Origin: Bilabrum cf. latius
Taxonomy: Eukaryota
Assembly (NCBI GenBank): GCA_965178125.1
Contig: OZ237745.1
Coordinates: forward strand, 558,001-622,000
Length of the DNA stretch: 64,000 nt
Reading direction: 5' to 3'
The notes beneath the pieces were generated by a model, which saw only the letters and a program-made list of their open reading frames with translations, ran no database searches and was not told where the DNA came from. Of the stretch, positions 3,183-58,987 are shown one piece after another (within the stretch, counting starts at the first letter, position 1; every line of letters starts with the position of its first letter). A program made the position numbers and the translations under genes.

Positions 3183-5103
3183 ATGGCCGCTGCCTCTGGA
3201 TCTGCCGACCTTACCTTTGAGAAGTATGATGTTAGTTTTTGTAGTCTTAGCGATGCGGTCACAAGGTTTCGCGGCTGTCACAGATCGCACAGCTCGGGAT
3301 GTGCTCATGATGTGTGATGCTCGACTTGTTGTTTCGTCCTTATAATTCGCAGTTCCTGAAAGAGTTGGGCATCACTGGTTCAAATGGTGGTGTGTATGAC
3401 GGTAAGACCTGCATGCGTAGTCGTTTAGTCGAAGTACTGCCTGCTGAGCTGGTTCCCTTCCGAGTGTTCCCGCGCTTTCCAACTGGATCGCGCGGGAACT
3501 GCATCGATTGCGGTCCCGGCGCGAGGATACTATGTCCATTCGCGCAGTTCAATGTGTTAATAAGCTTGCAACACTCCGCCATTCCTCCCACACTCCTCCC
3601 AATGCGCTCCCCGCAGGCGAGTGGAAGGGCTCCGGTGGCGCGGTCACCTCCATGAACCCCGCGACTGGCGAGGCCGTAGCCACGGTGGCGCAGGGTACTG
3701 CTGACGAGTACAAGTCGTGCCGCGCGGCCATGGACGCCGCGAAGAAGGACTGGGCCGAGATGCCGGCCCCCAAGCGCGGCGAGATCGTGCGCCAGATCTC
3801 GAACGCGATCCGCGACAAGATCGAGCCCCTGGGCAAGATCATCTCCCTGGAGATGGGCAAGATCCAGGCGGAAGGAATCGGCGAGGTGCAGGAGATCGTG
3901 GACATGTGCGACATGGCTGTCGGTCTCTCCCGGTCCATCAACGGGCAGGTGATCCCCAGCGAGCGCGAGGGGCACACCATCCTCGAGCAGTGGAACCCCC
4001 TCGGCCACGTGGCCGTCATCTCCGCCTTCAACTTTCCCATGGCCGTGCTGGGCTGGAACATGGCCCTGTCCATGATCTGCGGCAACTGCACGCTGTGGAA
4101 GGGTGCGCCCTCCACCTCGCTGTGCTCTGTGGCACTCACGAGGGTCATCGCCGACGTGCTCAAGAAGAACGACATCCACCCCGGCGTGTTTGTTCTCTGC
4201 CAGGGCGACGCTGACGTCGGCGAGATGATCACGGCGGACCCTGGGATCCCCCTGGTGTCCTTCACTGGGTCCTCGCAGGTGGGCCGCAGAGTCAGCGAGG
4301 TGGTGCACGGCCGATTCGGGCGCACCATCCTCGAGTGCTCCGGCAACGCCGCGGTGATCGTGATGCCCTCCGCCAACATGGACCTGGCTCTCAGGGCCGT
4401 TCTGTTCGGGTCCGTGGGCACTGCCGGCTAGCGGTGCACCACCTCGAGGCGGCTCCTCGTGCACGAGGCCGTGTACGACGAGTTCGTGAGCAAGCTGGCC
4501 AAGTCCTACGGGAGCGTGCCTGCGGGCAACCCCCTGGAGGAGGGCACCCTCCTGGGCCCCGTGCACTGCGAGCGGGCGGTGAAGGAGTACGAGGCCGCGG
4601 TCAAGGAGGCCACCGAGGAGGGCGGCAAGGTGCTCGTCGGCGGCAAGCGCATGGACAGGGCGGGGTACTACGTGGAGCCCACCATCGTGGAGATGTCCTC
4701 GTGCAAGGCCGAGAGCATGAAGGAGGAGGCCTTCGTGCCCGTGCTGTACGTGGCCAAGGTAAAGTCCCTGGAGGAGGCCATCGAGGCCAACAACTCGGTC
4801 AAGCAGGGCCTCAGCTCAGCCCTCTTCAGCACCGACATGAGGGAGGTGTTCAAGTGGGTGGGGCCCTCGGGGTCTGACTGCGGACTCGTCAACGTGAATG
4901 CGGGCTCCTCGGGCGCCGAGATCGGCGGGGCGTTCGGAGGAGAGAAGGAGACTGGCGGGGGGCGCGAGAGCGGCTCCAACGCCTGGCAGCAGTACATGCG
5001 CCGGTCCACCTGCACCATCAACTTCACAGACAACCTGCCGCTTGCGCAGGGCATCAAGTTCGGTGGAGGTGACGACGATGCGGCCGCTGGGGGAGGCAAG
5101 TGA
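3183..5103 (+). CDS. ALDH7A1: Aldehyde dehydrogenase family 7 (antiquitin / alpha-aminoadipic semialdehyde dehydrogenase)
   Basis: Exons 3183-3230, 3353-3401 and 3617-5103. Motifs LTFEKYDFLKELG, ISAFNFP, SFTGS, catalytic loop VGTAG[TAG 4429-4431]RCTT, and [22 protein letters not shown]. Ends TGA. Confidence 0.97.
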
Positions 5104-6052: not shown

Positions 6053-6123
6053 ATACAGCGCTTTCATCCTGCAATCGACTTGTAGGCTGTATCATAACCA
6101 GTGGTATTGCGTAGACTAGTGGA

Positions 6124-7908
6124 ATGCGAACTAGAATCGGTGTTGCACTTGCAGTCTTTGCGGTGGGTTGTGGTGCTACCGAGCCGCAGGAAGCACCAAG
6201 TACCGAGTTTAGTTCCATTGAGCTTCCACCGCAAAGTTGCGATGTCAGTGTGGTTGACTTGCAAGGTATGGAGTTTCAGGACGTGTTGGCGGCGCAAACT
6301 TGCACCGGACTGATGAACCGCAACCCAGGCGTAATTGGCGCGGCTTTTACGATCCAAACTGGTCAGCAGGACTGGGACTGGCTCAGTACGATGCAGTCGC
6401 AGAGCTCGTGGATTCGTAGCGTTCGCAACGTCACGTATCCTGACTTCGTGCAACGGTGCATGGCTTCCAACGTAACTGCAGGTTACATAAGATACCAGTA
6501 CTCGACGCAGCACCTGATCATTCCACAGCTCGTAACTGTAGCAGGGGTGGTGTCTGCTGTCCCCCTCGAGGATGGCTCGCCGTACACCAAGAACGCCTCG
6601 ATCGCGTTCGACGCAAGGGCAGTTTTCGGGACCAACAGCACGCTTCGGGAGGCTACTCAGTACATTTATGATCACTTTGTGGATAACACCACCACCATGG
6701 CGATGATGGATCCCGGTTTCACTGGAGCAGACAAGAACCCGTTCGCGCCGAACCTGACGCACTCGCCAAACGCTCGGCTGATCGACTTTATCGTGCAGCA
6801 GCGGTTGTTCAACTTCTACATGGTCGAAGCTTGCATCCCTCTCACGGATGATCACGCGCTTATGGATACGATCGCCGCCAGCAACCCCTGGCCGCGCCCC
6901 ATCCCCGTGTGGGGGTACGATAACACCTTCCCCATCCTGGGGGGCGATTTCTTCGAGGCGGAGACCTTCTGTTCCTCCCAGCACAACATGGGCCAGATCG
7001 CTTCCGACTCGGTGGACAACCTCTCTTTCTTCACCCTGGACGCGCCCATCACGGAACCCATGCCGCAGAACCCCACCCACGTCCCCACGTACAACAGCAG
7101 CAAGACCTACCTGGCCATCACCGTGGGTGATGGGGACAACCTGTCATTTATGCAAGGCGGCAGGAGGACATGGATGCAGCAGCGAGTGGCCAAGTGCAAG
7201 CAAGACCCCTCCTACAACGGCTGCTTTCCGCTCCTGTGGTCGGCCTCCCCGCACATGCTGCAGCACGCGCCTGCCTGGGCCAAGTGGTACTACGGCGAGG
7301 CAAGGGCCACTGGGAACGACTACTTCGTCCTGCCTCCCAGCGGGCACCTGTATGCCTACCCATCAATCATGTCTCCTGAGGATTAGGCGAGTTTCGTAAA
7401 GCAGACGGAGGAGGACGCCAGGCTCATGTCAACCAACTCGGCGGTGGCGTGGGAATTCGCCCTGAGCTGGGGCAAGGCGATCGACGAGTACTTTCCGCAG
7501 TACGACGAGGGGCAGATCGTGCAGTCATTCTTTGCAGTGAATGTTCCTTTCATGCTGCCCGTGCTTCCCTTCTTGGGAGGGAAGGAGTTCTTCAAAGTGC
7601 TGGGCAACCACTCCCGGGTCGTGCTCTTCAAGCCAAGGGAGTGGCGGGGCACGGACAAGTCCAGGTCGCCCCCACTCGGGCAAGGCTCGTACCTAACGGC
7701 CCAGGAAATGGCTGCAGAGGTCAACGGGTACCCAGGCGGGACCGTGACGCAGATCTATGTGACGAGTGACGGGGGCGCTAACCTGGACACGATCTACTCT
7801 CTGGTGCCTCTGCTGGGCGAGCACGTGCAGCTGGTGGACCACGAGGCACTGGCGGTCATGGCGCTGGCAAGCCATGGGGAAAAGCGGGGCAGGGGCGGAG
7901 GAGGGTGA
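6124..7908 (+). CDS. Secreted GxGYxYP-family putative glycoside hydrolase
   Basis: Signal-peptide-like N-terminus. GDGDN and LPPSGHLYAYPS motifs are typical of the GxGYxYP C-terminal domain. ORFs 6124-7386 and 7426-7908 are one frame joined by TAG 7384-7386. Ends TGA. Confidence 0.75.
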
Positions 7909-11598: not shown

Positions 11599-13164
11599 TT
11601 ACATGAACATCCGCTGCATCCCAGCCGCGTACGCCATCGGACGGATAGGCGGATGGGACACGGCGCTGAACTGAGTAAACGTGGGCTTGCAGTCCTCGTC
11701 AAGGTGCACGATGGCCCCCTTGTTCCCCATCTGGTCGCAGTAGTTGGGCGCGCTGAACACCGTGATGCACTGGCCCCCGTGCTCCACCAGATACCCCTCG
11801 TCCTTCACCTCGTGGGATCGGATCAGCAGCTCCAGCCCGTTCGCCTCTAGGAAGGCCTTGGTGACGTCGGGCCCGAACTGCTTGCCAACCCCGCGCTTGG
11901 AAGGACCCCTTCCTGGGAACGGCTGCGGATCCGCCCACATGATGTCGCTCATGATGCCCCCGCCTTCCGGAGACTCCCTGAACCGATTGGTCTTCTCAAT
12001 GTCGGCTAAGGTCACGCCGTCCTCCGCAAAAATGCCCCCGTGCACCACCAGCACCTTGCCGCCGATGCATGCAGCCAGGGGCAGCTGCTGGAAGAGCGAC
12101 AGGAACAGCTCCATCACGTCCTTGTCGTACTTGTGCACCACCTCGCCCTGAAAGCCATACACCTGGGTCATCTGCTTCGACTCGTGGTTCCCCCGCAGCA
12201 TGTGGAAGTGCTCAGGGAGGGCCAGCTTGAAGCTGAGCAGAGCCAGGATGTTCTCCACGCTGAAGGAGCCTCTATCCACGTAGTCTCCGTTGAAGAGGTA
12301 GGGGTTGCCCGTGGAAGGCTTCCCGTTGATCTTGAACAGCTCGAGCAGGTCGTAGTACTGTCCGTGAGTGTCGCCGCACACGTTGAACCGCTTCTTGCCC
12401 TTGATCTTAGACTCGACCAGCGCCTCCTCGCCCTCCTCCCGCTTGCCCTCGCTGGCATCCCCGCCGCTGGCCGAGCTAGGGTGATCGATCCTGATCAGCG
12501 TGGGAAGGTCATGGAGCAATTTGTATGCCTGCTGCAAGATCTGCACCACGTAGCGCCTGTGCAGGTTCTTCTGCTTGCGCTGGTACTCCAGCAGCTCGTC
12601 CACGAATTCGAGGGTCACAGTCCCGTCGTCCGGAAGCCTTGGTCCATCGTAGGACGATGGGACCGCATCTGGTTCCTTCGAGGCCAATTTTTCAAACACA
12701 TCCATTGTGTGCTCCGTTCGGATGGCCTTCTCAAAGGCTGCGCGCTTAACTTGCTTGTCCGCCTCCGCCAGCCGTTCCTTGGCATCAGCATCCCCTGGAA
12801 TCCTCGCAACAACTGCACGGAAGCACTTGCGTGCATCCTTATACTTTGCAAGGGCCAAGTATGCAGAACCTTTGCGGTAATAAGCTTTCAAGTAGCCCGC
12901 GTCAAGGGCTAATGCGCAGTCTGCATCGGCTATCGCGCTCCCGAATGCCTCGAGCTTTAGGTTACACATGGATCGGTTCCCGTATACAGGGGCCGTTGGC
13001 TTAGCATCAATCGACTTGGAATAGCACTCAATTGCTTGCTGGAAATGGCCCTCTTTGTACAGCGAATTGCCTTTGCCCTTCCATTCCATCGCGAGGTCGC
13101 TACTAGTTTCGCTCACTGCTGCTGGTGCAGCAGGTGAGCCGCTAGACCCAGCTATAGATGCCAT
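11599..13164 (-). CDS. PPP5C: Serine/threonine protein phosphatase 5 (TPR + PPP catalytic domain)
   Basis: N-terminal TPRs; GDTHGQ, GDYVDRG, RGNHE and SAPNYC motifs; C-terminal HPPIRPMAYA. Ends TAA at the expected C-terminus. No in-frame TAG. Confidence 0.97.
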   Translation of the reverse strand: MASIAGSSGSPAAPAAVSETSSDLAMEWKGKGNSLYKEGHFQQAIECYSKSIDAKPTAPVYGNRSMCNLKLEAFGSAIADADCALALDAGYLKAYYRKGSAYLALAKYKDARKCFRAVVARIPGDADAKERLAEADKQVKRAAFEKAIRTEHTMDVFEKLASKEPDAVPSSYDGPRLPDDGTVTLEFVDELLEYQRKQKNLHRRYVVQILQQAYKLLHDLPTLIRIDHPSSASGGDASEGKREEGEEALVESKIKGKKRFNVCGDTHGQYYDLLELFKINGKPSTGNPYLFNGDYVDRGSFSVENILALLSFKLALPEHFHMLRGNHESKQMTQVYGFQGEVVHKYDKDVMELFLSLFQQLPLAACIGGKVLVVHGGIFAEDGVTLADIEKTNRFRESPEGGGIMSDIMWADPQPFPGRGPSKRGVGKQFGPDVTKAFLEANGLELLIRSHEVKDEGYLVEHGGQCITVFSAPNYCDQMGNKGAIVHLDEDCKPTFTQFSAVSHPPIRPMAYAAGMQRMFM

Positions 13165-14388: not shown

Positions 14389-17300
14389 TCAGACCTGGTC
14401 GTCGTCGTCGTCCTCCTCCTCCTCTTCCTCCGCCTCGCCCGGTTCATCCACCTGGCCGCCAACAGCGACTTCCTTCTGCTCGCCCTGCGCCTGGCCCTCA
14501 TCCTGTGAGACCCCCGGCTAGGCTGGCTGCTCTCCTTGCCCTTGCCCTTGCTGCTGCGCAGCCCCTCCTTCCTCATCGCCGGCGGCTGGCTCTGCCGCCT
14601 AGGGCGCCGGCGGCACCGCTGGCCCGCTGTCTGCTCCAGCCCCTTCTCCTTCCCCTTCGTCTCCCCAGCGCTGCCCCACGGGATCCCCGCCCTCATCGAG
14701 CACCCCCAGCACCAGGTCATCCGGGATGGACCCGAACTCCTGCTCGTCCGTCCCCAGCGCCTCGAAGTGACCCGTCTCGTGCGCGAACTGCACTCCGCGC
14801 AGCCCTCGCACAACGTCGGCGCCCAGACCGCCAATCCTGCCACCGTCTGCGGCGTAAGGGGCCCACATCCCCTCGGGCAATTCCATCTCGAGGGGGTCCT
14901 TCCCGGCCTCGGCGGCCTCCTGGGCGAGCTTGCTGAACGCCTCGGTGGCTTCGGCCACGCTCTGCCCTTCGGGGGGCAGCACCGGGGATGTGTTGAACTG
15001 CTCCACCAGCACCTTGCCAAGAGCCTCTACAAGGCCGCGGGCATGCATGGCGCGGTGCCTAACGGCCTCCCGCCGCGCAGCCGAGCTGGACGGATTGGCC
15101 AGGAGCAGCCTCTGCATGAGAGAGACAACCTTGAAGGACAGCTCGGGTGGGGGCATCCCATCGTCGCCCCCGTCCTGACCGCCACCCATCAGCACGGCCA
15201 GGGCGGCATCTAGAGCCCCGTCCCTCACCAGCATCATGGTGCGGGCCTCGGTGACATCGTGGTGGCCCCCGATGCAGAGGAAGGCGAGGTACTGCAGCGA
15301 GAGGCTGCGGATCGAAGCGTGTGGGCTCTCCACAGCCATCTTGATCGCGGCCTTGTGCGAGCCCGCAAGGAGCTGCCTCCCTGCCGCCTCGCTGGGCGCG
15401 TTGCTGGAGCCCAGAAGGGCCCTGCACAGGACAGTCATGCCCCTGTCAGCCACCTCAGGGATGCGGTCGCCCATGGTGGCTATCAACCTGCCCAGGTGCT
15501 CGATCCCGGGAGCCCGCGTGATGGCGTTCCTGGCTTTGATCTTCTCGGACTCCTCGGCCCCCTCCTCTTCCTCCTCCTCCGCCTCTGCATCGTCGATGTT
15601 GGACGCGAAGTTCAGGAGGGTCACCAGCAGGTAGGACAGCCGGTCGTCGGACACGATCTGGGGACACTGCACCAGCTTGCCGGCTGCCTCGGGCATGCCG
15701 CCTTCGATCAGCTGCTGGATGCGGAGCAGCACCTGGGGGTCGCTTGTGTCTCCGAGGAGGGTGGCAGCTGACTGCCGCATGAGGGCCTCGATGGTGGCGC
15801 CCTGCACGATCAGCTGCACGGGCCTGGGCTCCTTGAAGGAGGCAGAGGCAGCGGCGGTCTTGTTGCTCCCGCTGGCCGCCGCCTCTCCTGCCGCCGCAGC
15901 GGCCTTGTTGTCCTTGGGCTCCGCCACTTCTCCTTTCTGTATGGCATCCGCTGCTTCGGCCTCCTTCTGCTCCTGCTCTTGCCCCTCTGCGTCAAGGTAC
16001 CTGGAAGCTCTCAGCATGGCGCGAGCCATCGCGGTGCCGCCGCCCATCTCGGCCAGCTTCACGCGGAGCCCCTCGGAGGCCTCCTCGCTCTCGCTCGCCA
16101 GGAAGCGCTGCACCATCGTGGCACCGTAGAAGTAGGCCGCGTCCTTGTCCGGCGGGTACGTGTTGAGGGCACGCACGCACAGGTCCATGGCTCCCAGGTC
16201 GGACACCCGAGCGCACTGCTCCTGCATGCGGGCGGAGTCGGGGCCGATCATCAGGAAGCCCAGGGCCTGCAGGGCCGCGCCCATGCCGCCCCCGCCCATA
16301 TCGAACTGGTGGTCGAGCTTGTTGGCCACCCGGATGAGTGAGGGCACGAGCTGCTCGATGCCCATGATGGTCTGCACCCGCCTGTCGAGCTCCTCGCCCC
16401 CGCCCTCCAGGCTGTTCGAGATGGCCTTGCCCTGCAGCTGGCAAGCCATTGGGATGAGCTTCTGCTTGAGAGACATGCGCAGCTGCAGCGACTCGATGAT
16501 GCCATCGTCGGGCACGGGCTTGTCATCGGGCGCGCTCTTCGGTCCGCCGCTCTTCACCCACCGGTCCACGGCGTCTCTGAACTCGCCCGTGGCTGCCTCT
16601 GCGTCCGCCAACAGCTCCACGAACAGCTGGGAGAGCTTGGGAAGGGCGCGCAGCAGGCGTCCGTTCACGAACGACTCCGAGTCCTCCTTGCAGAAGATGC
16701 TCGAGATCCTCGACACCAGCGTGCAGATGGCACCCATCACGATGGGATCGGTGAAGAACTCCTCCCGCTCGCACTCGAGAAGGTCCGCCACAGTCTCGTC
16801 CGCCTTGCACGCAACCAGAGCATCTGCGGCGGGGCCCCGTGCATCGGGAGTGAACACGCTCATGAATGCCAGCCCCTGGGCCAACGCGTACACTGCCCTC
16901 ACGTCGTTGTCCTTGCCGCCCTCCCTCTCCTCCGATGTGCCCTGGATCACCTTGTGGAGGCATCTGGAAAGGATCGGCACCCAGCCGGCCTTGCACGCCG
17001 CATCGATCCGCCTCGAGAGCTTGGGCCCGCCGCCCAGCAGCATGATGCTGGCGCTGTGTCCGACCCTCTGCCAGATGCGCTCGCTGAACTTGGCCTTGGG
17101 CTTGTTCTCGCCCTGCCCGTCCTCGCCCTCTTGCTCCTCCTCGTCCTTGCCGAGGTCCCTCGCAGTCGTGCCCAGGGCCTCGATGAACCCCGCCGCCTCC
17201 AGTCGATCCAGGATGGCCTCATCGGCCTCCTTGGGCAGGTTTAGCCGCTCCAGGATCCTCTGAATCCCCGCGATGGCGTTGTTGAGCGCCTGCCAGTTGT

Positions 17301-19158
17301 TCCCCGACGCTCTCATGAGCTCGATCCCCAGCTCCAAGAAGCCAAGCTCCACCATCTTGTCCCTCCTCGGGAGCACCTTGTCGTCGGGGCCCAGGGTCAT
17401 CTTGGCGCTGAACATCGCGAAGGGGTACGTGGCGCGCTGCTCCGCGGCGTGGTGCCGGATGACCTTGGCCACATGCTCGCCGGCCACCTCGAGAGCCTGG
17501 CTCCGCCTCTCATCCCCGGAGCCCTCCCCCTTGCTGTCGGCCTCTGGCATGTCAGCGGTGCAGTACGACAGCAGCAGGATCGCGTCACCCGCCGTGGAGG
17601 GCTCAGCAAAGGACAGAGACTCGTCCGCCAGCACGTCGGCCGCCAGCTCGATCCCTCCCTGGGCCGAGGCCTTCTCGCACCGCGCGATGAGGGGAGGCGA
17701 GAGAGTGCCGGTCAAGATCTCAAGCACCACGCGGACCACTCCGCCGGCCGCCTCTGGCCGCCTGCTGAGGCGCTTGATCTGCGGCCTCATCTTCTCGATG
17801 ATGGCGTACTTGTCGAGGAAATCGTCCCTCCTGCGGCCCTTGGTCTCATCGTCGCCCCACTGCAGCCAGCGAGTGCAGAACTCGCTCGTGCCCATGATCA
17901 CCCCCGGCTCCGCCTCGGGGTTCTCCAGCTGCTCCACGACCATGTCCAGCAGGCCGCTGTCTTCGAACACGGCAGTTTCGGCAAGCACAGTGTGCTCGCT
18001 GTCCGAGAACCCCGTGCAGATGGACATGACGTGCATGCTGTCTCCGAAGATCCGCACCTTCCTGAACTCCTCCGACTCGTCTACCTTGCCATCCACACCC
18101 TCGGCAGATGCGGCCGCGGCCACCCTGGTTCCATCAGACTCGTCCGCGGACTGCAGCATGCGAAGGCTAGAGTAGAAGCACGCCTGGGACACATCCAGGG
18201 CGCCCCAGGTGCGGAGGCGCTTGGACACGGCGTCGGCGGGAGCCATCCCCCCGTTGTCTTTCTCAGTCTCGTCCCTCCTCGTCCTGAGGGAGAGCTCGCA
18301 GAGGGACGCGAAGGCCCCCGCCAGCATCTCCTCGGTGTGGATCACGGACCGGAAGGCGCCGACGAAGCCCTCCGTTAGGTCGTCCACGCCGGCGTCCGCC
18401 ATCTCGGCCGCCTCTTTCTTCCCCTTTGCCATGTTGAAGCAGACGTGCACCAGCGGCCGCATGGTGGCGAGCAGCTCGCGGGCCCCTTCGGCGAGGCCAG
18501 CGGCCTCCCCCTCCCCCTCGCCCGTCTTGCTGGCCTCCTCGTGGGCCTGCTGCGCCTCGATCGCGAGATCCAGCAGCTGCTGCTGCGTGCTGATCGCCAG
18601 CAGATGTACCTGCGATTCCGAAAAGGTCTTGTACGACTCTGTTTCGTCCGGGATGCGGCTAAGGGCCCACAAGCAGAGGCCCAGGCCCTTCACAAGCTTG
18701 CGATAGTGTGACCGCAAGGTAATCGCGGCTTCCTTCTCGCTGCTCTCCTCGTCAATGACATCGCACGCAGGAGCCATGGCCTAGTTTAGTGCAGCCATCA
18801 GTGGCGGGACGACATTCTCATCCCCTGCAGTGAACGTCCGGTACATACCGTCAATGTCGCCCCACTGGCCAGCCTGCACCCTCTGAAGCGCACCGCCGAG
18901 CTTAATCAGCTGTGTTGCGGTCTCGCCCACGGTCTCAACGGTACACTCTGTCTCTCCCGAAGCAAGCTTATTGATAGACTCAATGAGGGCGTCTTCGAAG
19001 CAAACCTTCCTCATCATATCCACGGTTGGGTCCAGCTCGCGTTCCTCCTCGGTTGTGGTGTACGGGCGCATGGCCTCAATGCCATCTCCCTTGATGATTG
19101 TGATTGTCTCATCTCCAATTTCCATTACGGTGCTGTCGGATCCAGCAACACCTGCCAT
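14389..19158 (-). CDS. Large ARM/HEAT-like helical-repeat protein (~1,589 aa) with an acidic tail
   Basis: One frame from ATG 19158 to TGA 14389, joined through TAGs at 18781, 14599 and 14518. Amphipathic-helix repeats such as ELGFLELGIELMR and DLGAMDLCVRAL. Confidence 0.75.
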
Positions 19159-19352
19159 CTCGCACTGCTGCGCGAATCTTTGTGCCGGATCTTGAGTTTC
19201 GTGCCGCCGGGCAACTTGTGGACAGTTCTGCAAATTGAAACCGGAACTGGTACTTCGACGAAAGAACAGTGCCCACATATTTTTGGGCCAAATTGGTGAC
19301 AAAATGCGAAGCAAATAAGCTGCTGACTGCCCACACGGGCACACCGAGACAC

Positions 19353-22300
19353 TCAACCAACAACCACCCCATCTAGCACGAACTTGGGCACGAAGCAGTG
19401 CAGCACCTCGCTCGGAAGGGCGAGCACCTCGCAGATGTGCACGAGCAGCATCGCGAGGACGCCCACCTCGTCCGGCAGCTGCCCAGGGTTGCGACCGGTA
19501 AGACTCGCGTGCGTGATGGAGCGCAAGTGCTGCCCCAAGTACCCAAGAAACTTCGACGTGTTCCGGGGGTGCAGCTGCCGCAGCACCGTGGCAAGCCCCA
19601 CGGCCATCGCATACCCGTCCGTGCCCCCCGCCGGGGACTGGGCCGCCAGCGAGCCGAAGTCAGGGTCGTGCCGCAGTGCGGGCGCCTCCCGAATGGTCAG
19701 CACGGCAAGGAACAGAGGGAAGAGGGGCTGCGGCTCCACCAGCAGGTAGATCTTCTCGCAGGGGTCCGCCAGCCCAGAGGCCTGCAGGTGCCTCGAGAGC
19801 TCGGGCAGAAGCGGGGAGGACGGGTCCGGGTACGGCTTCTCCTCGCTTCTGTGGTAGTGCTGCCTCACGTCGCTGATTACCGCACCGCTGAGGGCAGAGA
19901 GGGATCCGTGGAGCAGCTTGGAATCCAGCCGTGCAGCGAACCTCAGCTCGTGAGCCAGCCTCCTCCGTACCAGCTGCAGCTGGCCCACCTCTAGAAGATA
20001 CTGCCGCATGGGCTGCAACCAGCCCCCCAGCTCGCCCCCTAGTTGGTCGAACGCCGAGTGCCCCGCGGGCACCAGCTTGCTCAGCGGCTCCAGCTCCTTG
20101 GCCACCTACCTGAGCATCGCCCTGCCACGGGCAGGCACCGCCCCACGCATGGCCAGGCTCCCGTCACCGGCGTACGTCTGCACGGCCATGGAAAGCACCC
20201 GTGCCACGCGGAAAGCCACCACCCTGTCGACCGCAGCCACCCCCGCCACGCCCAGGCCCTCCCGCAAGGAGGCGAAGGCCCTCAGGCCCGCCCTCTCCGT
20301 GCCGTCTCGCAGGAACCAGCCAGCGTGGTTTGGGGAGAAGGTCGTCCGGTCGTACCGAGTCATGTCCATGAGCGTCGTCACCACGCGGCCCAGGAAATTG
20401 GTCCCGCCAACCGGTCCCCTCGGGCTGCCTGCCCCCGCGGCGGCTCCCTTCTTCGGGTCGGCTGCGGGTGCGACGGCTCTGGAGACCAAGAAGGGGATCG
20501 GCACTGCCTCCGACTGGAACCGGCTGTCCCTGGGAGCCACCTTCTTCCGCAAGTATCGGTTGGCTTCCTGTTCCGCGTAGTACGACATGATTCTGGCGAA
20601 CTCCTGCTGCCACAGGTGCAGCCCCTTGATCCCGATAAAGTCCTAAATGTACTCGAAAGAGGACCGAAGCCCATCCAGCCGCTGCTTGGCCTGTGCGAGG
20701 CACTCCATCAGCGGCGGCGCCGGCGGAACCGGGTCTGCTTCCCCGGCACCCGAGGAGGCCCCCCGCTTGCTCTTGATGGGCTTGCCGTCAGGGCCCAGTG
20801 GCGGTCCCACCGGGATGGCCAGCGGCAGCAGCGCCGCATCCAAGGCCTTGCACACGTGGATGACCAGCTGCTTGCGCACGCCGTCGTTGAGGATGCGCCT
20901 CGGCTTCACGCGGATGATCCCGAGGAGGGTCTCCTCCTGCGCCAGCACGCCCTGCGTGAACACGCTGATCTCGTGCGTGAGCAGGGCCAGGTTGTACCTG
21001 AGCCTCGGCTGGGCCACCTTGGGCAGGTCATCCAGCTCCAGCCGCGCCGGCAACACCTTCATGTGCTCCGTCTGCAGGGCCACCACCCGCCTGAGCTTCT
21101 CAAACACGGTGATGGGGACGATGTCCATGACCTTGCGCAGGAACACCACCAGCTTGGTGCTGTAGTGCTGCGCCACGGAAGGCGCATCAGGCGAGTCAGA
21201 CTCGGTGACCCTCACCAGCGGCACGTCCAGCACGCTAGCCAGCTTGAGGAACGTGGCCCTGAGCTTGTCCACCGCTCCGGGATCCTTCTAGATGCGCCTG
21301 TGCATGAGGGGGATGAATTCGCCCATGACCCCCCACGCGTAGGCAAGGTCGGCCACCACCATGAGGTGCTGCATCTGGTGCTCCTTCACGTTGAGCAGCC
21401 GGATCAGCTGCTCCAACTCTGCCCGGATGACCCTCAGGTACTCCATGCAGGTGGTGGACGTTTCCACCGCCTCCATCTCCTCCACGTCGGTCAGGCCCCG
21501 GATCAGCCTCTGGATCTTGCGGCCCGCCAGGGTAGGATCGTCGAAGTTGAGCGCCGCCACGCGAGCCGCCTGCTCCGAGAAATGCTCCTGCAGCTCCTCG
21601 TCCTCCTCCACACGCCGCAGCCCGGACGTGCCACTGAAGTGCAGCGACAAGTCATTCAGCATGTCCTCGCAACGGGCTTGCCCAGCCGCCCACCGTTCCT
21701 GCCTCGAGTCCAGCAGCTGCCTCATCAAACCCTTGAGCCTGAATTCCAGCGAGGCCGTGCGCAGCAGGAAGTCCAGCAGCTGCGGGGCCGTCGGACTGCT
21801 CTTGCGCACCACGTCCCGCAGCCCAGCAGAGGCCGTGTTGCGGTGCAGCAGGAACCACCGCAGCGACGTGTTGCACTTGCGGAGCGTCGTCATGATGACC
21901 GGGAGCTTCGCCGCGACAGTGGCCTCCGACAGCTCTCCCTCCGCCAAGAGTCCATCCAGCTCGGCGCTGCCTGCTAGTGCCTCCCCATGGTGAAGCCGTG
22001 CGAGTGCAAGGGCCCGCTTGGGGCCAAGGTCGGCCCCTTTCAAAGCGGCTACAGCCGCTGGGTAGGCCGCCCATTCGATGGTGAGGTCGATCGTGAGTCC
22101 CATGTACACGGGAATGACCCAGTTGTCTGCGAAGAACCTGTCGACGAGGGCGCGCATGGTGGGGACCTCGCTGTGGAGGGTGCGGGGGGCCAGGTACAGG
22201 CAGGCCCACACCATGCCGGCCTGCTGAGCCAGTGCGAATGACTGGTGCTCCGGCAGAGGGTAGGCTCTCTGCAGCTGGTAGACGTCGTCAGACCTCAGGC

Positions 22301-23108
22301 GACCCATAAGCTTGGCAATGATGGGCTTGGGCATGTCAAAGCGGGCAAAGTATGCCTCGGGGTACTCGGGCGGGCGCTTCTGAGCTCCAGGGCGGTACCC
22401 CGTGTCTCGGCACAGGAGCATCACGTCCTCGATGCTAGTCACGCTGCCCTCCCCCTTGAGCCTGTAGTGGGCCACCACGATGCGCTCGCGCACGGGTCCC
22501 GGAACCCTCCTATCTAACAAGATGAGCATCACACACATCATGAAGAATGCCTCGCACAACAGCTGCTTGCCGTCAGCATGCAGAAACACGCCCTCCGTTG
22601 TGTGCGAAATGTAGAATCCCCGATCAAGGTTGTCCAAATACTCCTTGAACTCGTCAATCCACCTATGTACCGCCTCAAACAGAAGGTAAAACCGTTCAAG
22701 CAGCGGCCCGTGGCTCTCGTTGCACTCGTCGTCAAGATCGCTGAACGCAGGATTGCGACTGACCTTCGTATCGTACATATCTGGCTCCTAAAAATATCGA
22801 AAGTCAAAGAGGATCTCCTAGAACTTTTGCACCTGGACCCTGTCCTCAGGCCGGCTCGCAAATTGGGCCAAGAAGGGAGAAGGGATCGCGTCGGCCAGCC
22901 GCGAAATTTCAGCGATGATGCTGGACGCCTGAGATACGAGTTGCAGCAGGGTCATACCGCACTAATTGTTAGGGGCCATCAGATCGGCCTCAGCCTCCTC
23001 ATCAATAAGCTTCAGTCTTCGACGGGCACGCTTGCGCTTTTCATCCGCAGAGCTATGCACGATGATTGCCGTTGACGAAGGGCCAGTTCCTGCTCCGGAC
23101 GCCGCCAT
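19353..23108 (-). CDS. WASHC5: Strumpellin, WASH complex subunit 5
   Basis: Motifs NN.CGMTLLQLVS, ILFDFRYF, GKQLLCEA, RERIVVAHYR, GRLRSDDVY, VDRFFADNWVIPVYMG, KLRATFLKLAS and SFEYI[TAG]DF. One frame through TAGs at 22962, 22818, 22788, 21288, 20643 and 20106. Ends TGA. Confidence 0.95.
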
Positions 23109-23514
23109 TGTAGCAGCCGTTTGAATATTGGTACAATAGACCCGAGTGTCTCGGAATCTATAAATTAGGAGGGGTGGCCGAGCACAAGTTTCCGATACGC
23201 ACATGTCCAGGACATCAATCCAGATTCCTACAATGAACACGCTACAAATCGCAAATTTGGCGTTTGGGACGTCCACAGATGCTTATTTGGGGATTATTTG
23301 GGGTTTATTTGGGGATTCTGCGACACCGCAGCACCACGCAGCTGTTCGCCTGGCAACTCCACGTCGTCGAGAATGGCATTCACCTGTACCAGTGCTACAA
23401 AATTTCAATTTGTTGAGAAATTATTTTGCTCATCTGTCAGCTCGAGCGGCGTGAGTCCCACCCAGCAGTTCGTGCCCGCACAATAGGACACAGCACGGGC
23501 CACAGGCCACGCCC

Positions 23515-26500
23515 TCACAACATGCTATTAACGTGGTGGCGCATCGCTTCGATCGCATGATCTCTATCCTGCGTCGTTGCAAGCTGCCAATGCATTGTTT
23601 CCGAGCCCACGATGTACAAACACCTCGGAGCGTCGGCAGAGCTCCCAAACAGACGCCCAGAGTATACTGGCGGATTCCCTGCTCTAGCCTTGCTAGCTGC
23701 CCTCAGCCTTATCTTGTATGCTGCGGTAGCGTCAAGAAGGGCGGAGGCGGCGCGAACGGCTACAGTGCACGAGGCCCATGGCAGTTGACGGGAGCCGCTC
23801 TTGGCAACCAGTGGAGCAAGTGGGCAACACAGCAGCTTGTGATGGGGCAGGGCGCAGCAATAACACAGCTGGGGCAACAATACGATCAGTCTCACCTTGT
23901 TTTCCCTTCTTGCTTTCGTCAGGGGAGCACACAAGCTCGCTGCCGACGAGCTTGGCGATCCGCTTGTGGGGGGCACCGTCTGACGCCCACACAGTGACGT
24001 TGTGCCCGCCGCCTTTCAAATTCCTGAGCACAGCCTGCGCCCCCTTGGACAGCACGGTGCCTGCAACAGAGCCTCCACCCGCAGCAGCCATTGGGTTGGT
24101 GGCCTGCATCGTCTCGGCCGGCGCAGGCGACTCGGCAGCGCCGTTCGAAGCCTCTGCACCAGCGTCGCCGTCCTCAGCCGGCTCCACCCCAACGGCAGCC
24201 TTGATGGGCGGCACTGACGTCTGGGTCTTCCTGATTTCATCCACGATCTCTTTTGCTTTGTCGCACGTGCTGCGGTCGAAGAAGAACTCCCCGTTCTGGT
24301 GCACCTCCTCGTACCGCGTGTAGAGCAGCTGCATGGTCCCCGGGATTGAATCCGAGACCAGCTGGCTGCTGGCCTCGGGATCCTTAACAAGCACCTACAG
24401 GAGCCGCAGCAGCTGCTGCACCGCCTGCCGCCAGACGATCGGTTTGTCGAGGTCTTCTTTAGCGGCGTGCACGGCCTGCTCCGTGATCACTGCGGCGAGC
24501 CTGCGGGGCACCTTGGCGATGATAACGGCCTGCGGGTCCGTCTCGGCCATCGTGACCACGAACTGCGCCAGTGCAGCCACCATGTCCGTGTCCTCTGCAT
24601 TCACCTCCAGCAGCTGACCCACCAGTGGCGCGCAAAGCTCAGCAACCTGGTGCCCCAGCACCTGCCTGTCCATCTCAGACCAGCCGTTCAGTACGGAGAG
24701 AGCAATGGTCAGGAACTCGGGGTCTGCCATATGCTGCCTCGCCACGTCGATCAGGGTGTTGACGCTCTGCATCTCCTTGGCAGCCTCCACGATCTCGGGG
24801 CCCTGGCCCAGCATGAGCACGGACAGGCACGTGACGGCCAGCCGAGAGTTCTCCGCCCCTGCGCCTCGGTGGGCCTCCACCGCGGAGAGGAGCACTTGGG
24901 GCGCCCCCGAGCCCATCACGATCTGCCTGGCCCCCTCCACCTCAAGCGCCGCCCCCAGCACCCGGGCACCTCTCCGCAGCAGCTCGATGTTGTAGTCAAA
25001 TCCTCGCATGACCCGCAGCACATGCGGGATAGCTCCCAGATCCCTGACAAGCACGCCGATCAGCTCCCTCGATGCGCCAAGGTAGTGCAGCGCCTTGAGG
25101 CACGCGATGAGAAGATCCTCGTCTCGCGTGTCGCTCTGCATGACATCCAAGAGGCACCGGGCGGCCCCTCCCTTGACCAGCATCGTGTTGAGCGCCACCT
25201 GAAGGGACCCGGGTTTCTTGGGATCCACCTGGCTCGCGGCCGCCTTCATGCTCTCTAGGGTGGCCTTGCTGTCAGGGTCCATGCCAGCGCCCTTGGCCTT
25301 GGCCTTGGCCTCGATGGCAGCCACGCTGTCGTTGAGGATCCGGAGCCCCTCCGAGGCAGCGACGTTGCGCTCGTCTACTGTGGCCAGGTTGCTGATCACG
25401 TCGGCGCCCAGCTTGACGAGGTCTGCCCGCTCGAAGTTGGACCGGAGGCCCTTGATGATCCCCGATATGGACCCGGCCGCAACCACCCTGACGATGTTCT
25501 CGTCCAGCCTGGTCGTGTTCCCCAGCACACGCAGGGCCATGGAGAACAGGTGCGTGTCCAGGTAGAACCTCCTAAGGATGATCACGACTTCGGTGGAGCA
25601 CTACCGGCCCACCTCCAGCTGCACCTTCTCCGAGACGTACGCGAGGTTGGACAACAGGCAGAGCGAGTCCTCCAGCAGCCGGGGGTCCTTGTGGTGCCTG
25701 GCCATCAGTCGAGCCGTCACGCCAACCCCGTCCAGAGACAGGAACTCGCTCCCCGCGCTGCTGCCGGAACCCTGCTCCTCGTCACAGGCGATGTTGGCTA
25801 GGGCCTGCACGCAGCTCTTGGCTATCCTCGGCTCCATCTTGTTCTTCACAGAGGCCCCCGGCCCCGTGTGCCGCACCTCGAGCTGGTCCACCTCGGCTGG
25901 AAGGTGCTCAGGGAGCCAAGATAAGGTGGCACCAGCCGCGGTTGTGCGCACATCCCCGTGCGCCTTGACGATGCCGAGCAGGCACCCGGTCGCGCCGGCG
26001 TGGGCAGCCGCTCGCGTGTGCTCCTGCTCGAAGGAGAGAGGAAGCACCAGCTCAGCGATAGCTTCGCACGCACGCTGACTCTCGGGATGCATGTTGGCAA
26101 GGGTAATGACACGGGCGATGCCGTCGATCCTGTGCAATGCGTCCACATTCTCCGACTTGGCGCACAACCGAGCCAGCGCAGAGATTGCCATCTCGACCAC
26201 ACCAACATCGTCCCTTCGCACCTCGCCCATCGTGAGCAGCCCCTCGATCGCGTGTGCGGGGCACTCGGTCACTGCTTCGTCGTCCAGCATTCTGGTAATC
26301 TTGTGCATCTCCCACAGCTTGTCCAGCAGCGCGGCCAGCTCCTCAGGCGCGTCCCACTGCGCCTCATCCGAATCTGGCGTGCTGTAGTATGTGGCCCCCC
26401 ACGTATCTGGATCGTCGTCTTCTCGATCGCGGAAGCGACCCATGCCTTTGGCAGCTTCACCAGCCTCAAGCGCAGCCAGGATCTTCTCGATGAACCCAGT

Positions 26501-41041: not shown

Positions 41042-42426
41042 TTATGCGTCCGGCGATGCTGGCGTTGCTGGAGCCACCTCGCCGGAGCCCTCACGCTGGG
41101 AATTGAACACAGAGTTCATGCCAGCCGGCAGCGTACCATCTGCTCCTGTCGCTGTCGCAGACGCCCACAAGCTGAGGCCAGAGCTCGCCCCGTACCCCAG
41201 CCACAGCATCAGTGGGATCTGCAGCACTCCCAACCCGAGCACCACCAGGTTTGCTCTCCCCTGCACCGACAGCGTGGACCCCTGAGGCATGCACGCGCCC
41301 AGTGCTGCAGACACAAACCGAACCGTGCACGCCCCGGTGTACGCCAGAGCGACGTAATACCCGACATCCCCGAACCCAAACAGCCCCGCCAGGATCTGCG
41401 CCACGAAGTTCACAATCAGTCCCAGGTACTTGCACCCGCACAGTGCCAAAAGGTCAAGCACCTGAAGCTTCCTCAGCCCATCCACTGCCGAAAGCGCCAC
41501 ATACAGAAGACCCACCTCCAGGATGGTCGCAACCACACACGTGGTCGCAACCTCGCTGAGCATCTCCGGCGTGAACTCCATCTGCGTCCCCTTGAGCAGC
41601 CCGAAGAGGAGCACGTACGTGACCAGGCTCATGGCTGGGAGGTACAGGTCCAGCTGGTTGGGGTCCTCCACCGGGGGGAACACGGAGAGCTCCTGGGAAC
41701 CAGGGGGGGTGTGGTGGTGCTAGTGCTAGCCGTGGGGCTGGTGTATCTGCCCGAAGGCATGCCCTGGTTCCGCTGCTCCCCCCTGCCCGTGCGCCTGCTC
41801 AGCCCCGGCCACCTCTTTTCGCTTCCAGTCTTTCTTCGTGAAAGGGAACAAGAGCGTGCGCATGCGCTGCACTACAAACGATGTATCTACCTAAAATCGC
41901 AACCGGAGAGCCTGCCAAATCATGTGCATGCCTGGGACGTATGCCGCGAGACCCGATTGCACCGCCTGCTTGCCAGCACTCATTGCCATAGACGCCATCA
42001 TTTGGCTGCGAAATTCCACGAAAATTGATGTTCTTGCCTCACTATTTGACGTAATAAAAGATTTTTCAACAAATATAGCGAAATTCTGGCAAGCACTCAC
42101 GTGGCTGGATCGCCCAAGGCCTGGAACGGCTGGGCAAACGGCTGGCTGGGTGCTGCGGAAAACTGCGACGGCCCGTTGCCACGTGCAGCCCCCGGCCCTG
42201 TCTATGGAGTGACAGTTGATCCACTAGGAGCTGATTGTGCCCCCGCGGCACCCTAACCTTGGAACCCTTGAAAGGGTTGCTGCGTTGCGCCGAACCCTTG
42301 GCTGCCAGCTGGCTGCTGCGTTGACTGCACACCTCGCATGAAAGGGTTAGCCGTCCCACCTGATTCATGTGTAGTGCTACTATGTGATCCAAATGGCGGT
42401 GCTCCCTAGCCTCCAAACTGCGCCAT
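41042..42426 (-). CDS. YIF1: YIF1-family ER-Golgi transport membrane protein
   Basis: Exons 42426-42101 and 42005-41042. Motifs LRF[TAG]VDTSFVVQRMRTLLFPF and DPNQLDLYLPAMSLVTYVLL; DLLALCGCKY; several TM helices. TAGs at 42406, 42253, 42202, 41891, 41726 and 41720. Ends TAA. Confidence 0.9.
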
Positions 42427-49414: not shown

Positions 49415-52400
49415 ATGGCTACTTCGTTGGCGCGCCAAGTTGCATAGCTGCGAGATGGCAGGAGGCGCAAAGGCGAGGCATCTGTCCTGTTCACTCGTCA
49501 AGAGGCAGAGAATTACAATCTTACCTCGATACACGAAATTGGACTTAATGGACTCTCAGAGCTGTGTGGACTCAACCCAGCATTCTATGAATTTCAGTCC
49601 ACCTTGTTCGGCAGGAGCCTACTCGACAAAGACAGGGAACTCCTTGATTCGGCAGAGATTAGCAAGATCTCTGCCATAATCGACAAGTTTCTTCATTTGT
49701 TGTCTCCTTATTTTGCAACAAGGCCCGCCCAGAAGGCATTAGAATTCCTAGTCAGGCATTTCAAGTGAGTTCCATGTTGAAGGTCTGGGCGCTGCTCCCG
49801 CCGTGCCATCGAATGCCTCTTGATGCCCATGCTCAGTAACGAAGCACGCCACAACGTCTTTTGTTCCACTTTCGTATTGCAGGGTGCAAGAGTTCCATGT
49901 AGACTCGCTGTTGTCATGCGCCTTACCAGCTCACGACACGAGGTTTTTTGCAAGGATTGCAAACCTTGCCCCCTTGAAGAATACGCGGTGGCAGTTCCTG
50001 GCTAGAATATCTCGGACCGGAAGCCCTCTCCCAAGAGCGGTGCTTGCGCTACAGTGCGTTAAGGACCCTTCAGTGTTGCAATTTGTGCTAGATTTGGCTA
50101 CCAACTAGGAGCGGAAGCCTCACCGAACAACCGTCTCCTTCGTGGCTGCCACTGCGCGAGATGCTCTAGCGAGGGCTTCACCAGAGCAGATGGAGCCAGT
50201 GCTAGCATCCGTGTCTCGCTGCATCGCGAAGACAAGCACCTCAGAGTCCGCAGAGGTCCGCGCTCTGTGCCTCGTTCTCATCGCCAGTGCGTCCTCTGCC
50301 GCGCGACTCTCCGAAGACACGATGGGCGCCCTCCTGAGGGCATGGACAGAGGTGGCTGCCAGGGCGACAGCAGCATCCTCCGCGGAGAAGTAGATGGAAT
50401 GCGCCGCGGCTCTGGCCAGCGCCCTGGCCTCGCAAGACGCGCTGGCGCTCAGGTCCAGGAGCAAGCGGGCTGCAAGGGCCGAGCCAGTGGGGCAGGCTGC
50501 GCTAGAGGGATTCGCGGCGGGGCAGCAGCACGCCGCTGCCCTGCCTAGTCTTCCGAAAAAGGCGGCTTCCAGCGGATCAGGAGCGAGCTCTGCATCCATG
50601 TCAGCCTCGTCCAATCGATTGAGGGCCACCGATGCGGCCGAGTACAGCGGTGCCATGGGGCGGTTTGCCTCCAGGGTGAGCAGCTTTACCTGGATAGGAG
50701 GCGCACTGCAGCACCTATCAAGAACCTCGGACGTGTCTGCTGTCGTGAGGCATGCGCTCGGGGACGCCGTTCAGGGCTTGGGCCACCGACCTGGCTAGGA
50801 AGAGGTGCTGGCCGGGCTCGTGAAGATGCTAGCCGGCGTGTCTGTATCCGATGCTATAGTTGCTGAGCTTATTGGTCTCGTAGTTGGTATGGCGAGCAGT
50901 CTGCTGCGTGGTAGTTCATCCGGCATCGCGCCTTCCTCTTCTGTGGGTGAGGATCTCGCCGCGCTTGGAGCCACTCTGCCGATGCTAGCTCTCCTGTCGC
51001 AAGCAGGGGCGCAGGTGTCGCTGCAGCTGTGCATGCGGCTTGTGCATCGCCAGGAAGAGGGCGTGCCAAAGGCGTTGCTCGACTGGATGCAAAATTATCT
51101 GAAGGCGAGTCCGTTGGCCCCCTTGCGAGCCGGCGTGCAGTCCGCGTCTGGCTCAGAATCGTCGACAAGCTACCTTGATGTCACCACGCTTCCATACGCG
51201 CTGACGAGCAGCGATGTACAGGTGCGTCTTGATGCTATCAAGAAGCTTGCCGAGCTGGTCGACGAGACGGTACAGCGCAGCGAAATAGCTGCAGCCGGCT
51301 CGGCTGCGATGACTGACAGTGAGGATGAGGAGGACAGCAAGAGAGGCGGCCCACATGGTAGCAGTGCCCGCACCCAGAGCAATTCATTCATGCGTAGCGC
51401 CGTGGCTTTGAGACAGTTTGACGAAGATGCTTCCGTTGCACGACAGGCGCTTGACCTTGAGACCAAGATGATCCTAGCTGGGGCGGGGCATGCGGCCGAT
51501 GTGCACGAGGCTGGAGTATCCATTGGGCAGCACGATATCGTGCTCGATGGCACGCCAGGCGTGGCTGTGTCAAGGTTCTCCAAGGTTGAGCAGTATTGGC
51601 AGAGAGTTGCAACATCGCAGGCCAGCAGTAGCGAGGAAGTTATTGCCGCCAATGAAGCGGTGTAGGCAAGCTTGCGTGCGTGCGGGGCAGTTGCTCGTTC
51701 CGCTGCAGATGCTGCCTCCAAGTCGATGGCAGTCATGGTCTTGCTGAATCACGTCCCCGTTGGCACAGAAACTCCATCTGTTGTTGATGCGGAGGCCCTA
51801 AAGCAGCTGGTTGCCGCCTCCTCGAGGTTCCCACCTCTGCGGTATCTCGCAGGTATTCCATCTGAATCCAGCTCAGACCTACCGAAGGTAAGATAGCGCA
51901 TACATTCCGTTTGCGTGGTTAAGTTGGCCTCGTGGTTGACAGCCTGGTTTCTGATGATTACACCCTAGTCTCGTTCGTCTGAGTTGGGGGCACAGACCCT
52001 CACGCCGAAGACAAACCCTAATATCGGAAATACTTTATGAAGAAAGCAGGCGGTCCATATTTGTTGCAAGATTGGAGCCAGTGCGTTATCTTGATGCTGT
52101 TACTACCACCAACGACTTTGTTGCCATCGTTCGAACATATCTCGCAGGATGTGGCAAAGCAGCTCGTGCGAGCGTGCTCGCGGGCAGCTTCGGAGCCAGC
52201 CGAACAGGGCCAGACTCTAGCCCTGCTCAAGGCAATGGGAGCCTCACCCTCGCCTCGCCTGCGCTGGATCAGCGCGCTCGTGTTTGTGGAGGGTATCCGA
52301 ATGGCTGGTGCGGCAGCAAACGCGCTGGCAGGATCGGCTGCGTCTATCATGTGGCCGCGCCCTATCGACGGTGAGGCGTCCTCCCGCAAGGCTGCCAGGA

Positions 52401-58400: not shown

Positions 58401-58987
58401 GAACGGTCGGAGTGCCGACGTCCAGGCACGGGCTTCGCTGCGCTGCGCTGGCCTTCTTGCAGCACCTGCTTGCCTTTGACTCCATGGGCTGGGTGGCGGG
58501 CGACAAGATGCGTCTAAGGATGATTGTGCGCAGCATTGCCGGCGCTTGGGCCCCGCCGTCATCGCGCAAGCGCGGTCTCGAGGATATCCTGGAGTCGTGT
58601 GCTTCCGACGCTGCCCAGCCCGCCGCGATGGCCGGTGGCCGGCGCGGACTGGCCTCGTACGGCGACCGGTATCTGCTCCCGGTTACCACAGCTATGGTCA
58701 AGTGCCTCTCAGGAGACTTGCAGTGGAAGCAAGTCAACCTCATGGTGCTCGAACACTCACATGACGAGCGGCCGGAGGTGCGCGAGCTGGCGATCAGATG
58801 CTCTCAGGTGGTGTTCGACGAGGCCGGGACGGATGACGTCATGGTTCTCATCCCGGAGACGTTGCCGTTTGTGGCCGAGGCCTTGGAGGATGAAGACGAA
58901 GCCGTAGAGGACTCGGCCAGGTCTCTGTTCAAGCGGCTTGAGGACCTCAGCGATGAGGATCTTGAGGACTTCATCAAGGGGAACTAA
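49415..58987 (+). CDS. UTP10: U3 snoRNA-associated protein 10 (HEATR1/BAP28), about 3,080 aa
   Basis: N-terminus MATSLARQVA[TAG]L...ASVLF...LSPYFATRPAQKALEFLVRHFK; C-terminus LIPETLPFVAEALEDEDEAVE. Intron 49765-49882 and a second about 51853-52049 (boundaries uncertain). Eleven TAGs (49445, 50106, 50391, 50796, 51663, 53267, 53588, 53657, 55721, 56354, 57257). Ends TAA. Confidence 0.92.

Follow-up and report, generated by a model that had tools for sequence, protein, structure and literature searches.

Reassignments of stop codons in nuclear codes are rare, and those in which UAG has changed without UAA are rarer still. Panek et al. 2017 reportedly described such a nuclear code for Iotanema spirale, with UAG encoding glutamine (Gln) and UAA as a stop. 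Decoding of UAG alone as Gln is listed for I. spirale, for Protocruzia tuzeti and for two phyllopharyngean ciliate lineages, and decoding of both UAR codons (UAA and UAG) as Gln is listed for many ciliates, ulvophycean green algae, Hexamita, Streblomastix and Amoeboaphelidium (PMC11687900). The same listing gives UAG as leucine (Leu) in an uncultured rhizarian and a ciliate, and as serine (Ser) in the green alga Scotinosphaera. In that account, UAG can evolve independently because a tRNA with anticodon CUA should not read UAA (PMC11687900). The Iotanema release factor eRF1 is described as having a changed GTS motif, which is thought to abolish the recognition of UAG (PMC9161772), and crAss-like phages are described as using code 15 (PMC9523058). 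Here, we analysed a window of 64 kb (the whole stretch of 64,000 nucleotides, positions 558,001 to 622,000 of contig OZ237745.1 of Bilabrum cf. latius, assembly GCA_965178125.1), in which the gene of the WASH complex protein strumpellin (WASHC5) carries an in-frame TAG inside a conserved motif. In this window UAG is very probably an ordinary sense codon for Gln, UAA and UGA being kept as stops, and the focal TAG would stand for a conserved Gln of strumpellin. We take this pattern to be that of NCBI table 15.

The strumpellin gene and its six in-frame TAGs are given below, with the residues found in the corresponding columns of the orthologue alignment.

19353..23108, minus strand: strumpellin/WASHC5 gene, with its ATG at 23106-23108, its stop TGA at 19353-19355 and no intron detected
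22962..22964, minus strand: TAG at strumpellin residue 107, a variable column (L 18, I 11, V 11, Q 1 of 75)
22818..22820, minus strand: TAG at strumpellin residue 155, a variable column (A 26, G 17, S 15, Q 6 of 98)
22788..22790, minus strand: TAG at strumpellin residue 165 (K 45, R 16, Q 7 of 101)
21288..21290, minus strand: TAG at strumpellin residue 665 (K 49, R 35, Q 11, A 11 of 130)
20643..20645, minus strand: focal TAG, residue 880 of the strumpellin open reading frame (ORF), read from the sequence (Q in 108/116 of the orthologue column)
20106..20108, minus strand: TAG at strumpellin residue 1059 (Q commonest, 15/87)

Positions 20643-20645 read cta on the plus strand and form, on the minus strand, an in-frame TAG within SFEYI[TAG]DF. 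The earlier note had reported this TAG, leaving the strand unstated, together with five further TAGs in the same open frame. Both statements are correct: the stop-to-stop frame at 19353-23282 (minus strand) covers 1309 codons with six TAGs, no TAA and no TGA. All six TAGs lie downstream of the likely ATG, and the coding sequence (19356-23108) yields a protein of 1251 residues. The ORF matches the Pfam family PF10266 (E=0, 1044 bits for a cut-off of 25) in one stretch, over positions 1-1083 of the 1084 of the profile, and is predicted on this basis to be a full-length member of the strumpellin family. The 1309-codon frame is not a product of chance, since the two off-frames of confident genes of the window carry a TAA or a TGA every ~40-47 codons; arithmetic from the off-frame counts puts the probability of such a run without TAA and TGA at ~1e-12. 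In the PDB, strumpellin has no sequence-detectable relative. Its closest full-length matches are 36-46% identical, the named ones being from Paratrimastix pyriformis (38%) and Pelagophyceae sp. CCMP2097 (36%).

To place the TAGs in orthologues, residues 101-1300 of the strumpellin ORF, with TAG set as X, were searched against 1.84 billion cluster representatives. This search gave 2195 homologues at E<=1e-3 and 354 at E<=1e-30. The best 150 of the 2195 matches were realigned to the query; coverage varies by column, hence the differing denominators. In the focal column, the eight sequences without Q have S (4) or E, G, D and R (1 each), and none of the 116 has Lys, Leu, Tyr or Trp. When close relatives are left out, Q is found in 107/115. 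The proposal of the earlier note that this TAG occupies a conserved-Gln column of WASHC5 is therefore borne out by the alignment, in which neither Leu, Glu nor Tyr dominates this column.

We also summed Codetta-style log-odds over the six TAG columns with 145 orthologues, the five close relatives being left out. Gln was the only one of the four leading readings with a positive score (Q +5.8 bits, D -3.1, K -3.9, E -4.8). As a control, the same calculation identified 51 of 52 ordinary codons correctly. Given six random true-Gln positions, it returned Gln in 1821 of 2000 draws; given six true-Glu or true-Arg positions, it did so in 32 and 16 of 1000, respectively, and in 1000 draws of true-Lys positions Gln was outside the four commonest calls. 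On average, Gln has a share of 0.27 in the columns of true Gln codons and of 0.22 in those of the TAGs. Given these shares and the controls, the TAG columns resemble an ordinary sample of Gln positions. Altogether, TAG positions appear to match Gln in orthologues.

Further information came from close relatives, found both for strumpellin and for a second gene of the window, which encodes a protein with ankyrin repeats and a JmjC domain.

37964-40291, minus strand: ankyrin+JmjC gene with nine TAGs, for which a 91%-identical relative was found
39905-07, 39887-89, 39587-89 and 39374-76, minus strand: ankyrin+JmjC TAGs at which the aligned relative has Gln
39074-39076, minus strand: fifth TAG of the ankyrin+JmjC gene, where the predicted protein of the relative ends

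Among the cluster representatives, five short strumpellin proteins are 83-88% identical to that of the window (P0111, P0125, P0131, P0134 and P0151). P0111 (84% identical) reads SFEYIQDFIGI at the focal site, and both P0131 and P0134 read RAMLRQVAKEL at the site of the residue 1059 TAG. P0151 ends exactly before the residue 665 TAG, and P0125 starts 4 residues past the residue 165 TAG. The relative of the ankyrin+JmjC protein (405 residues, 91% identity) has Q at the four TAG sites that it spans, out of four, and ends right before the fifth. Taken together, the relatives at 83-91% identity (five strumpellin fragments and one ankyrin-JmjC fragment) have Q at 6/6 TAG sites, that is in 7/7 fragment-site cells. 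At least two relatives exist, because P0111 and P0134 differ across their overlap. P0111, P0125, P0131, P0134, P0151 and P0164 are present in public assemblies as fragments only.

The predicted proteins of two relatives break exactly at TAG positions of the window, which would be the expected output of a standard-code gene caller if the relatives carry TAG there too. Fragments that start or stop at TAG positions suggest that the genes of this clade are systematically mis-called under the standard code. Close relatives thus appear to share the in-frame use of TAG for Gln. As for the ankyrin+JmjC gene itself, its TAG density (9 in 776 codons) is the highest, and its share of CAA is unusually high.

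With regard to these data, we considered whether the TAGs could be mere damage under the standard code, be it pseudogenes or sequencing or assembly errors. This alternative explains that there are stop codons under the standard code and nothing further. It is so improbable as to be nearly negligible: TAG alone is found in frame, never TAA or TGA; the frames are intact over thousands of codons, with a strong bias in G+C between codon positions; Pfam matches are full-length; and the relatives retain the same genes at 83-91% identity.

Codon counts extend the reading of UAG as Gln to the whole window. We defined a confident set of eight coding regions supported by Pfam or the PDB, amounting to 6398 codons (the rows UTP10N and ORF8409 were left out as mis-framed). 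This set holds 27 TAG, 197 CAG and 44 CAA codons, with neither TAA nor TGA. The density of TAG is 4.2 per 1000 codons and TAG makes up ~10% of the codons that read as Gln. The two off-frames contain 118 and 138 TGA, 49 and 33 TAG, and 18 and 19 TAA; TAA and TGA together thus make up 136 and 157 of 6390 triplets, and TGA is 3-4 times commoner than TAG. Across the 16 long ORFs of the window we counted 75 in-frame TAGs. Hence TAG stands in frame inside conserved genes. The ends of 15 long ORFs are TGA in nine cases and TAA in six, two of which can be placed against human orthologues.

11599..11601, minus strand: TAA stop of the PP5 phosphatase gene, a gene without in-frame TAG
58985..58987, plus strand: TAA stop of the UTP10/HEATR1 gene, located at the orthologous C-terminus

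For PP5, the alignment with human PP5 chains reaches residue 517 of 521 in the query and 472 of 477 in the chain, and is followed by TAA. For UTP10, the alignment with human HEATR1 reaches residue 2317 of 2321 in the query and 2143 of 2144 in the chain, again followed by TAA. The TGA of ALDH7, an antiquitin-type aldehyde dehydrogenase, is found 12 codons past the end of its PDB alignment. Because TAA and TGA are absent in frame, and because TAA ends PP5 and UTP10 at orthologous C-termini, we consider that both codons still terminate. The lengths of the longest ORFs are also informative: they are 1393, 805 and 696 aa under the standard code and become 3310, 2321, 1756 and 1309 aa with TAG as sense, and reading TAA as sense barely alters them.

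Could UAG be Gln inside genes and a context-dependent terminator at some gene ends? Such dual stop/sense use is known from some ciliates and, with UAA, from Blastocrithidia. Our ORFs are bounded by TAA or TGA by construction, so that any terminal TAG would be read through, and two TAGs stand in the acidic C-terminal tail of a 1756-aa ORF next to strumpellin; both observations are compatible with such a code. We nevertheless regard it as improbable: ALDH7, PP5, UTP10 and strumpellin, whose C-termini can be set against orthologues or profiles, end in TGA or TAA and have no TAG at or near their ends, and TAG, at 4.2 per 1000 codons, is as dense as expected of a plain sense codon. None of these four placeable C-termini ends at TAG (0/4), a small sample taken from ORFs that read through TAG. 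No TAG terminator of the type of ambiguous codes (NCBI tables 27 and 28) was seen, detection being weak in 64 kb.

The standard code could also be maintained if the TAGs were restored to CAG by U-to-C RNA editing, or bypassed by site-specific programmed readthrough, either of which would likewise yield Gln at conserved sites. Such a process would have to cover 75 TAGs in 16 long ORFs, yet no TAA and none of the commoner TGA codons. Nuclear U-to-C editing is not known to occur on such a scale, though no literature search aimed at it was made. Moreover, the proteins of the relatives break at two of these TAG positions, and the codon is therefore conserved as TAG and is not a transient lesion. 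Editing or readthrough is thus highly improbable, and decoding of UAG as Gln is retained.

TAGs in other genes of the window were compared with Pfam profiles and PDB chains.

3532-5100, plus strand: ALDH7 (antiquitin-type aldehyde dehydrogenase) gene with a single TAG at 4429..4431, in GTAG[TAG]RCTT
7384..7386, plus strand: TAG of the GxGYxYP_C gene, in SPED[TAG]ASF, assessed by Pfam readings
41891..41893, minus strand: TAG of YIF1, in RF[TAG]VD; the ORF matches Pfam YIF1 at 1.8e-42
49445..49447, plus strand: TAG in the first exon (49415-49765) of UTP10/HEATR1, in QVA[TAG]L

The TAG of ALDH7 corresponds to the Gln located two residues before the conserved Cys, and Q is present in this column in all three of the best PDB chains (4pxn, 2jg7 and 4x0t). 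The focal strumpellin TAG and that of ALDH7 would be the two sites of the window whose residue is fixed by near-invariant conservation, and as such the strongest single-site proofs that the sequence offers. In four short segments (strumpellin focal site, Aldedh, YIF1 and GxGYxYP_C), the TAG was then set to each of the 20 residues and scored with Pfam. Q came first for the strumpellin segment (80.9 bits, followed by Glu with 79.2) and for the Aldedh segment of ALDH7 (90.2 bits, followed by Glu with 87.1). Summed over the four segments, the scores were 290.9 for Q, 285.9 for N, 284.7 for E, 284.1 for K, 282.7 for S, 281.1 for L, 279.3 for Y and 277.0 for W.

Two further sites had been put forward in the earlier note as agreeing with Gln, and for both the site itself is present. 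For RF[TAG]VD of YIF1, agreement with Gln is weak: Gln is compatible with the Pfam profile, in which it ranks second of 20. The search for YIF1 homologues gave no match at E<=1e-5 among 8000 scored candidates, and comparison with the PDB gave two chance-level matches to an unrelated plant enzyme and nothing else. The YIF1 ORF (41045-42001, minus strand) also has a His-rich insert at ~41720-41730 with two more TAGs, HQPHG[TAG]H[TAG]HHH; with TAG as Gln, this insert becomes a Q/H-rich low-complexity stretch that is missing from the Pfam profile. For QVA[TAG]L of UTP10, the register with yeast QLAQV proposed earlier was not confirmed. In the exon 49415-49765, the match to HEATR1/Utp10 chains of the PDB begins at residue 18-22, the TAG lies in the unconserved first 17 residues, and the human and Chaetomium HMMER alignments begin after it. 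The UTP10/HEATR1 gene (49415-58987, plus strand) consists of at least three open frames (49415-49765, 49824-52037 and 52022-58984), and the short gaps and frame changes between them are presumably small introns. Its two large pieces match no Pfam family at threshold, though they match HEATR1/Utp10 chains of the PDB. Finally, TAG also occurs in poly-Gln runs, EQQQQ[TAG][TAG]HH (~2130, minus strand) and KQQ[TAG]QQ (~35250, plus strand). These runs were dropped as evidence: TAG is found beside CAG or CAA in 7/75 cases for a background of 7.8% (p=0.36).

These sites bear on whether UAG could instead encode Glu, Lys, Leu, Tyr, Ser or Trp. Codons of these six residues also differ from UAG by one base, and several of the six are known as reassignments in other systems. 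Lys is commonest in two strumpellin columns (45/101 and 49/130), Leu tops the GxGYxYP site, and the yeast residue aligned with the UTP10 TAG is Leu. These few columns are outweighed by the focal one (Lys, Leu, Tyr and Trp 0/116, Glu 1, Ser 4), by the log-odds of -3.9 for K and -4.8 for E vs +5.8 for Q, and by the controls, in which true-Lys, true-Glu and true-Arg positions are rarely called Gln. In addition, the relatives have Q at 6/6 sites and the Pfam sum places Q ahead of all others by 5.0 to 13.9 bits. A residue other than Gln is therefore exceedingly improbable.

Several observations nonetheless weigh against UAG as a plain Gln codon. A conserved-Gln column is found for just one of the six strumpellin TAGs, and four of the six columns are led by other residues (L, A, K and K), Gln amounting to 1-8% there. 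In the YIF1 segment, Asn scores 0.3 bits over Gln (N 48.6, Q 48.3, K 47.7 bits). In the GxGYxYP_C segment, Leu, Phe and Met lead (L 74.6, F 74.5, M 73.4) and Q, with 71.5 bits, is 14th of 20, 3.1 bits under Leu; this site is a genuine datum against Gln, yet it is one variable site in a divergent family. The yeast Leu opposite the UTP10 TAG stands at a low-confidence alignment edge. As mentioned above, TAG shows no enrichment beside CAG or CAA codons. The 1756-aa ORF has its two TAGs within the last 80 codons, which makes its true end uncertain, and it is possible that TAG ends some genes. The total length of ORFs >=300 aa increases from 17,446 aa under the standard code to 32,033 aa with TAG as sense, and it is larger with TGA as sense (47,073 aa). 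Since it rises most with TGA, total ORF length is not specific to TAG and was dropped as a code detector, the pattern of the longest ORFs alone being specific. Finally, ARAGORN found no tRNA gene in the 64-kb window, and no eRF1 gene was found among the window ORFs scanned with Pfam.

With UAG read as Gln, the following scheme can be proposed. TAG codons most likely derive from the dominant CAG by a C-to-T change tolerated as synonymous. This origin is the most plausible because the G+C content at third codon positions (GC3) is near 0.8 and CAG is the dominant Gln codon. By analogy with the published lineages with UAG as Gln, a tRNA-Gln with anticodon CUA would decode UAG and not UAA, and eRF1 would no longer recognise UAG.

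The window is ~60% G+C and gene-dense, with genes on both strands. G+C is ~0.53 at 36000-40000, which spans the end of a 952-codon ORF, an intergenic stretch and the ankyrin+JmjC gene, vs 0.59-0.67 over most of the window. An Rfam scan of the 64 kb gave no match, rRNA included. Strumpellin is flanked by two very large ORFs, one of 1756 codons with 3 TAGs (14392-19659, minus strand) and one of 3310 codons with 10 TAGs (23735-33664, minus strand). Both are Ala-rich with low-complexity tracts, and neither has a significant Pfam family; the 3310-codon ORF has a sub-threshold match of the ARM type only (ARMC5, 25 bits vs a cut-off of 80). Amid the core eukaryotic genes there are three secreted-looking, glycosidase-like genes of bacterial flavour (5893-7905, plus strand; 8409-9377, minus strand; 59152-61179, minus strand). 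According to Pfam, one of them has a GxGYxYP domain. One glycosidase-like exon shows a likeness to GH43 in its protein-atlas features alone (score 0.95, with clusters that are all bacterial), which is a lead, and a 676-aa secreted-looking ORF has no Pfam match. Two of the three glycosidase-like genes carry in-frame TAGs and are therefore read by the host code.

The kind of code found here is already known, and the lineage may be new. Beyond the organisms of PMC11687900, we found no eukaryote with UAG alone as Gln in the open-access literature, in a search that was not exhaustive and for which that listing served as reference. We propose tentatively, and with rather less than even confidence, that the window belongs to a GC-rich, intron-poor, non-ciliate lineage not yet known to deviate from the standard code, with at least two further members, seen as fragments at 83-91% identity in public assemblies, and an independent origin of UAG as Gln with UAA as stop. 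If true, the UAR codons, which are rarely decoupled, would have come apart independently once more. Genes of such a lineage would be broken up by standard-code callers, as seen from the truncation of the relatives, which would explain the lack of a close named protein (the best full-length strumpellin match is 46% identical). In a further lineage for which genomic DNA is available, the changes in tRNA-Gln(CUA) and eRF1 that separate UAG from UAA could be found, and the repeated emergence of the same solution could be tested. Furthermore, annotation would gain from a correction: the standard code cuts most large genes of the window into pieces, and public relatives are truncated at TAG.

How does this window compare with the known systems? 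Like code 15 of crAss-like phages as it is described, it would use TAG for Gln with the other two stops kept. The setting of these phages is viral and bacterial, whereas the window holds eukaryotic genes (WASH complex, YIF1, UTP10 and PP5). As in the lineages with UAG as Leu or Ser, UAG is decoupled from UAA, and UAA and UGA are kept as stops. It differs from them in the focal column, with Leu in 0/116, Ser in 4/116 and Gln in 108/116. With the UAR codes, which we take to be NCBI table 6, the window shares the reading of a stop codon as Gln, presumably via a mutated tRNA-Gln. Unlike in these codes, TAA is found in 0/6398 codons and ends 6/15 ORFs, including PP5 and UTP10. A code in which TAA is also Gln was thus considered and rejected: TAA is absent in frame and acts as a terminator, which excludes this class.

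The codon table proposed here is the same as that listed for Protocruzia tuzeti and the two phyllopharyngean lineages, for which repeated origins are given (PMC11687900). Compared with those ciliates, the window is ~60% G+C and has ~16 large genes in 64 kb, on both strands, with a few GT-AG-looking introns. We presume this layout to be unlike that of ciliate macronuclear DNA. For Iotanema spirale, the account in PMC9161772 describes a transcriptome only, while the window is genomic DNA. The window would nevertheless resemble this non-ciliate member of the Fornicata in reading UAG as Gln with UAA still a stop (PMC9161772, PMC11687900).

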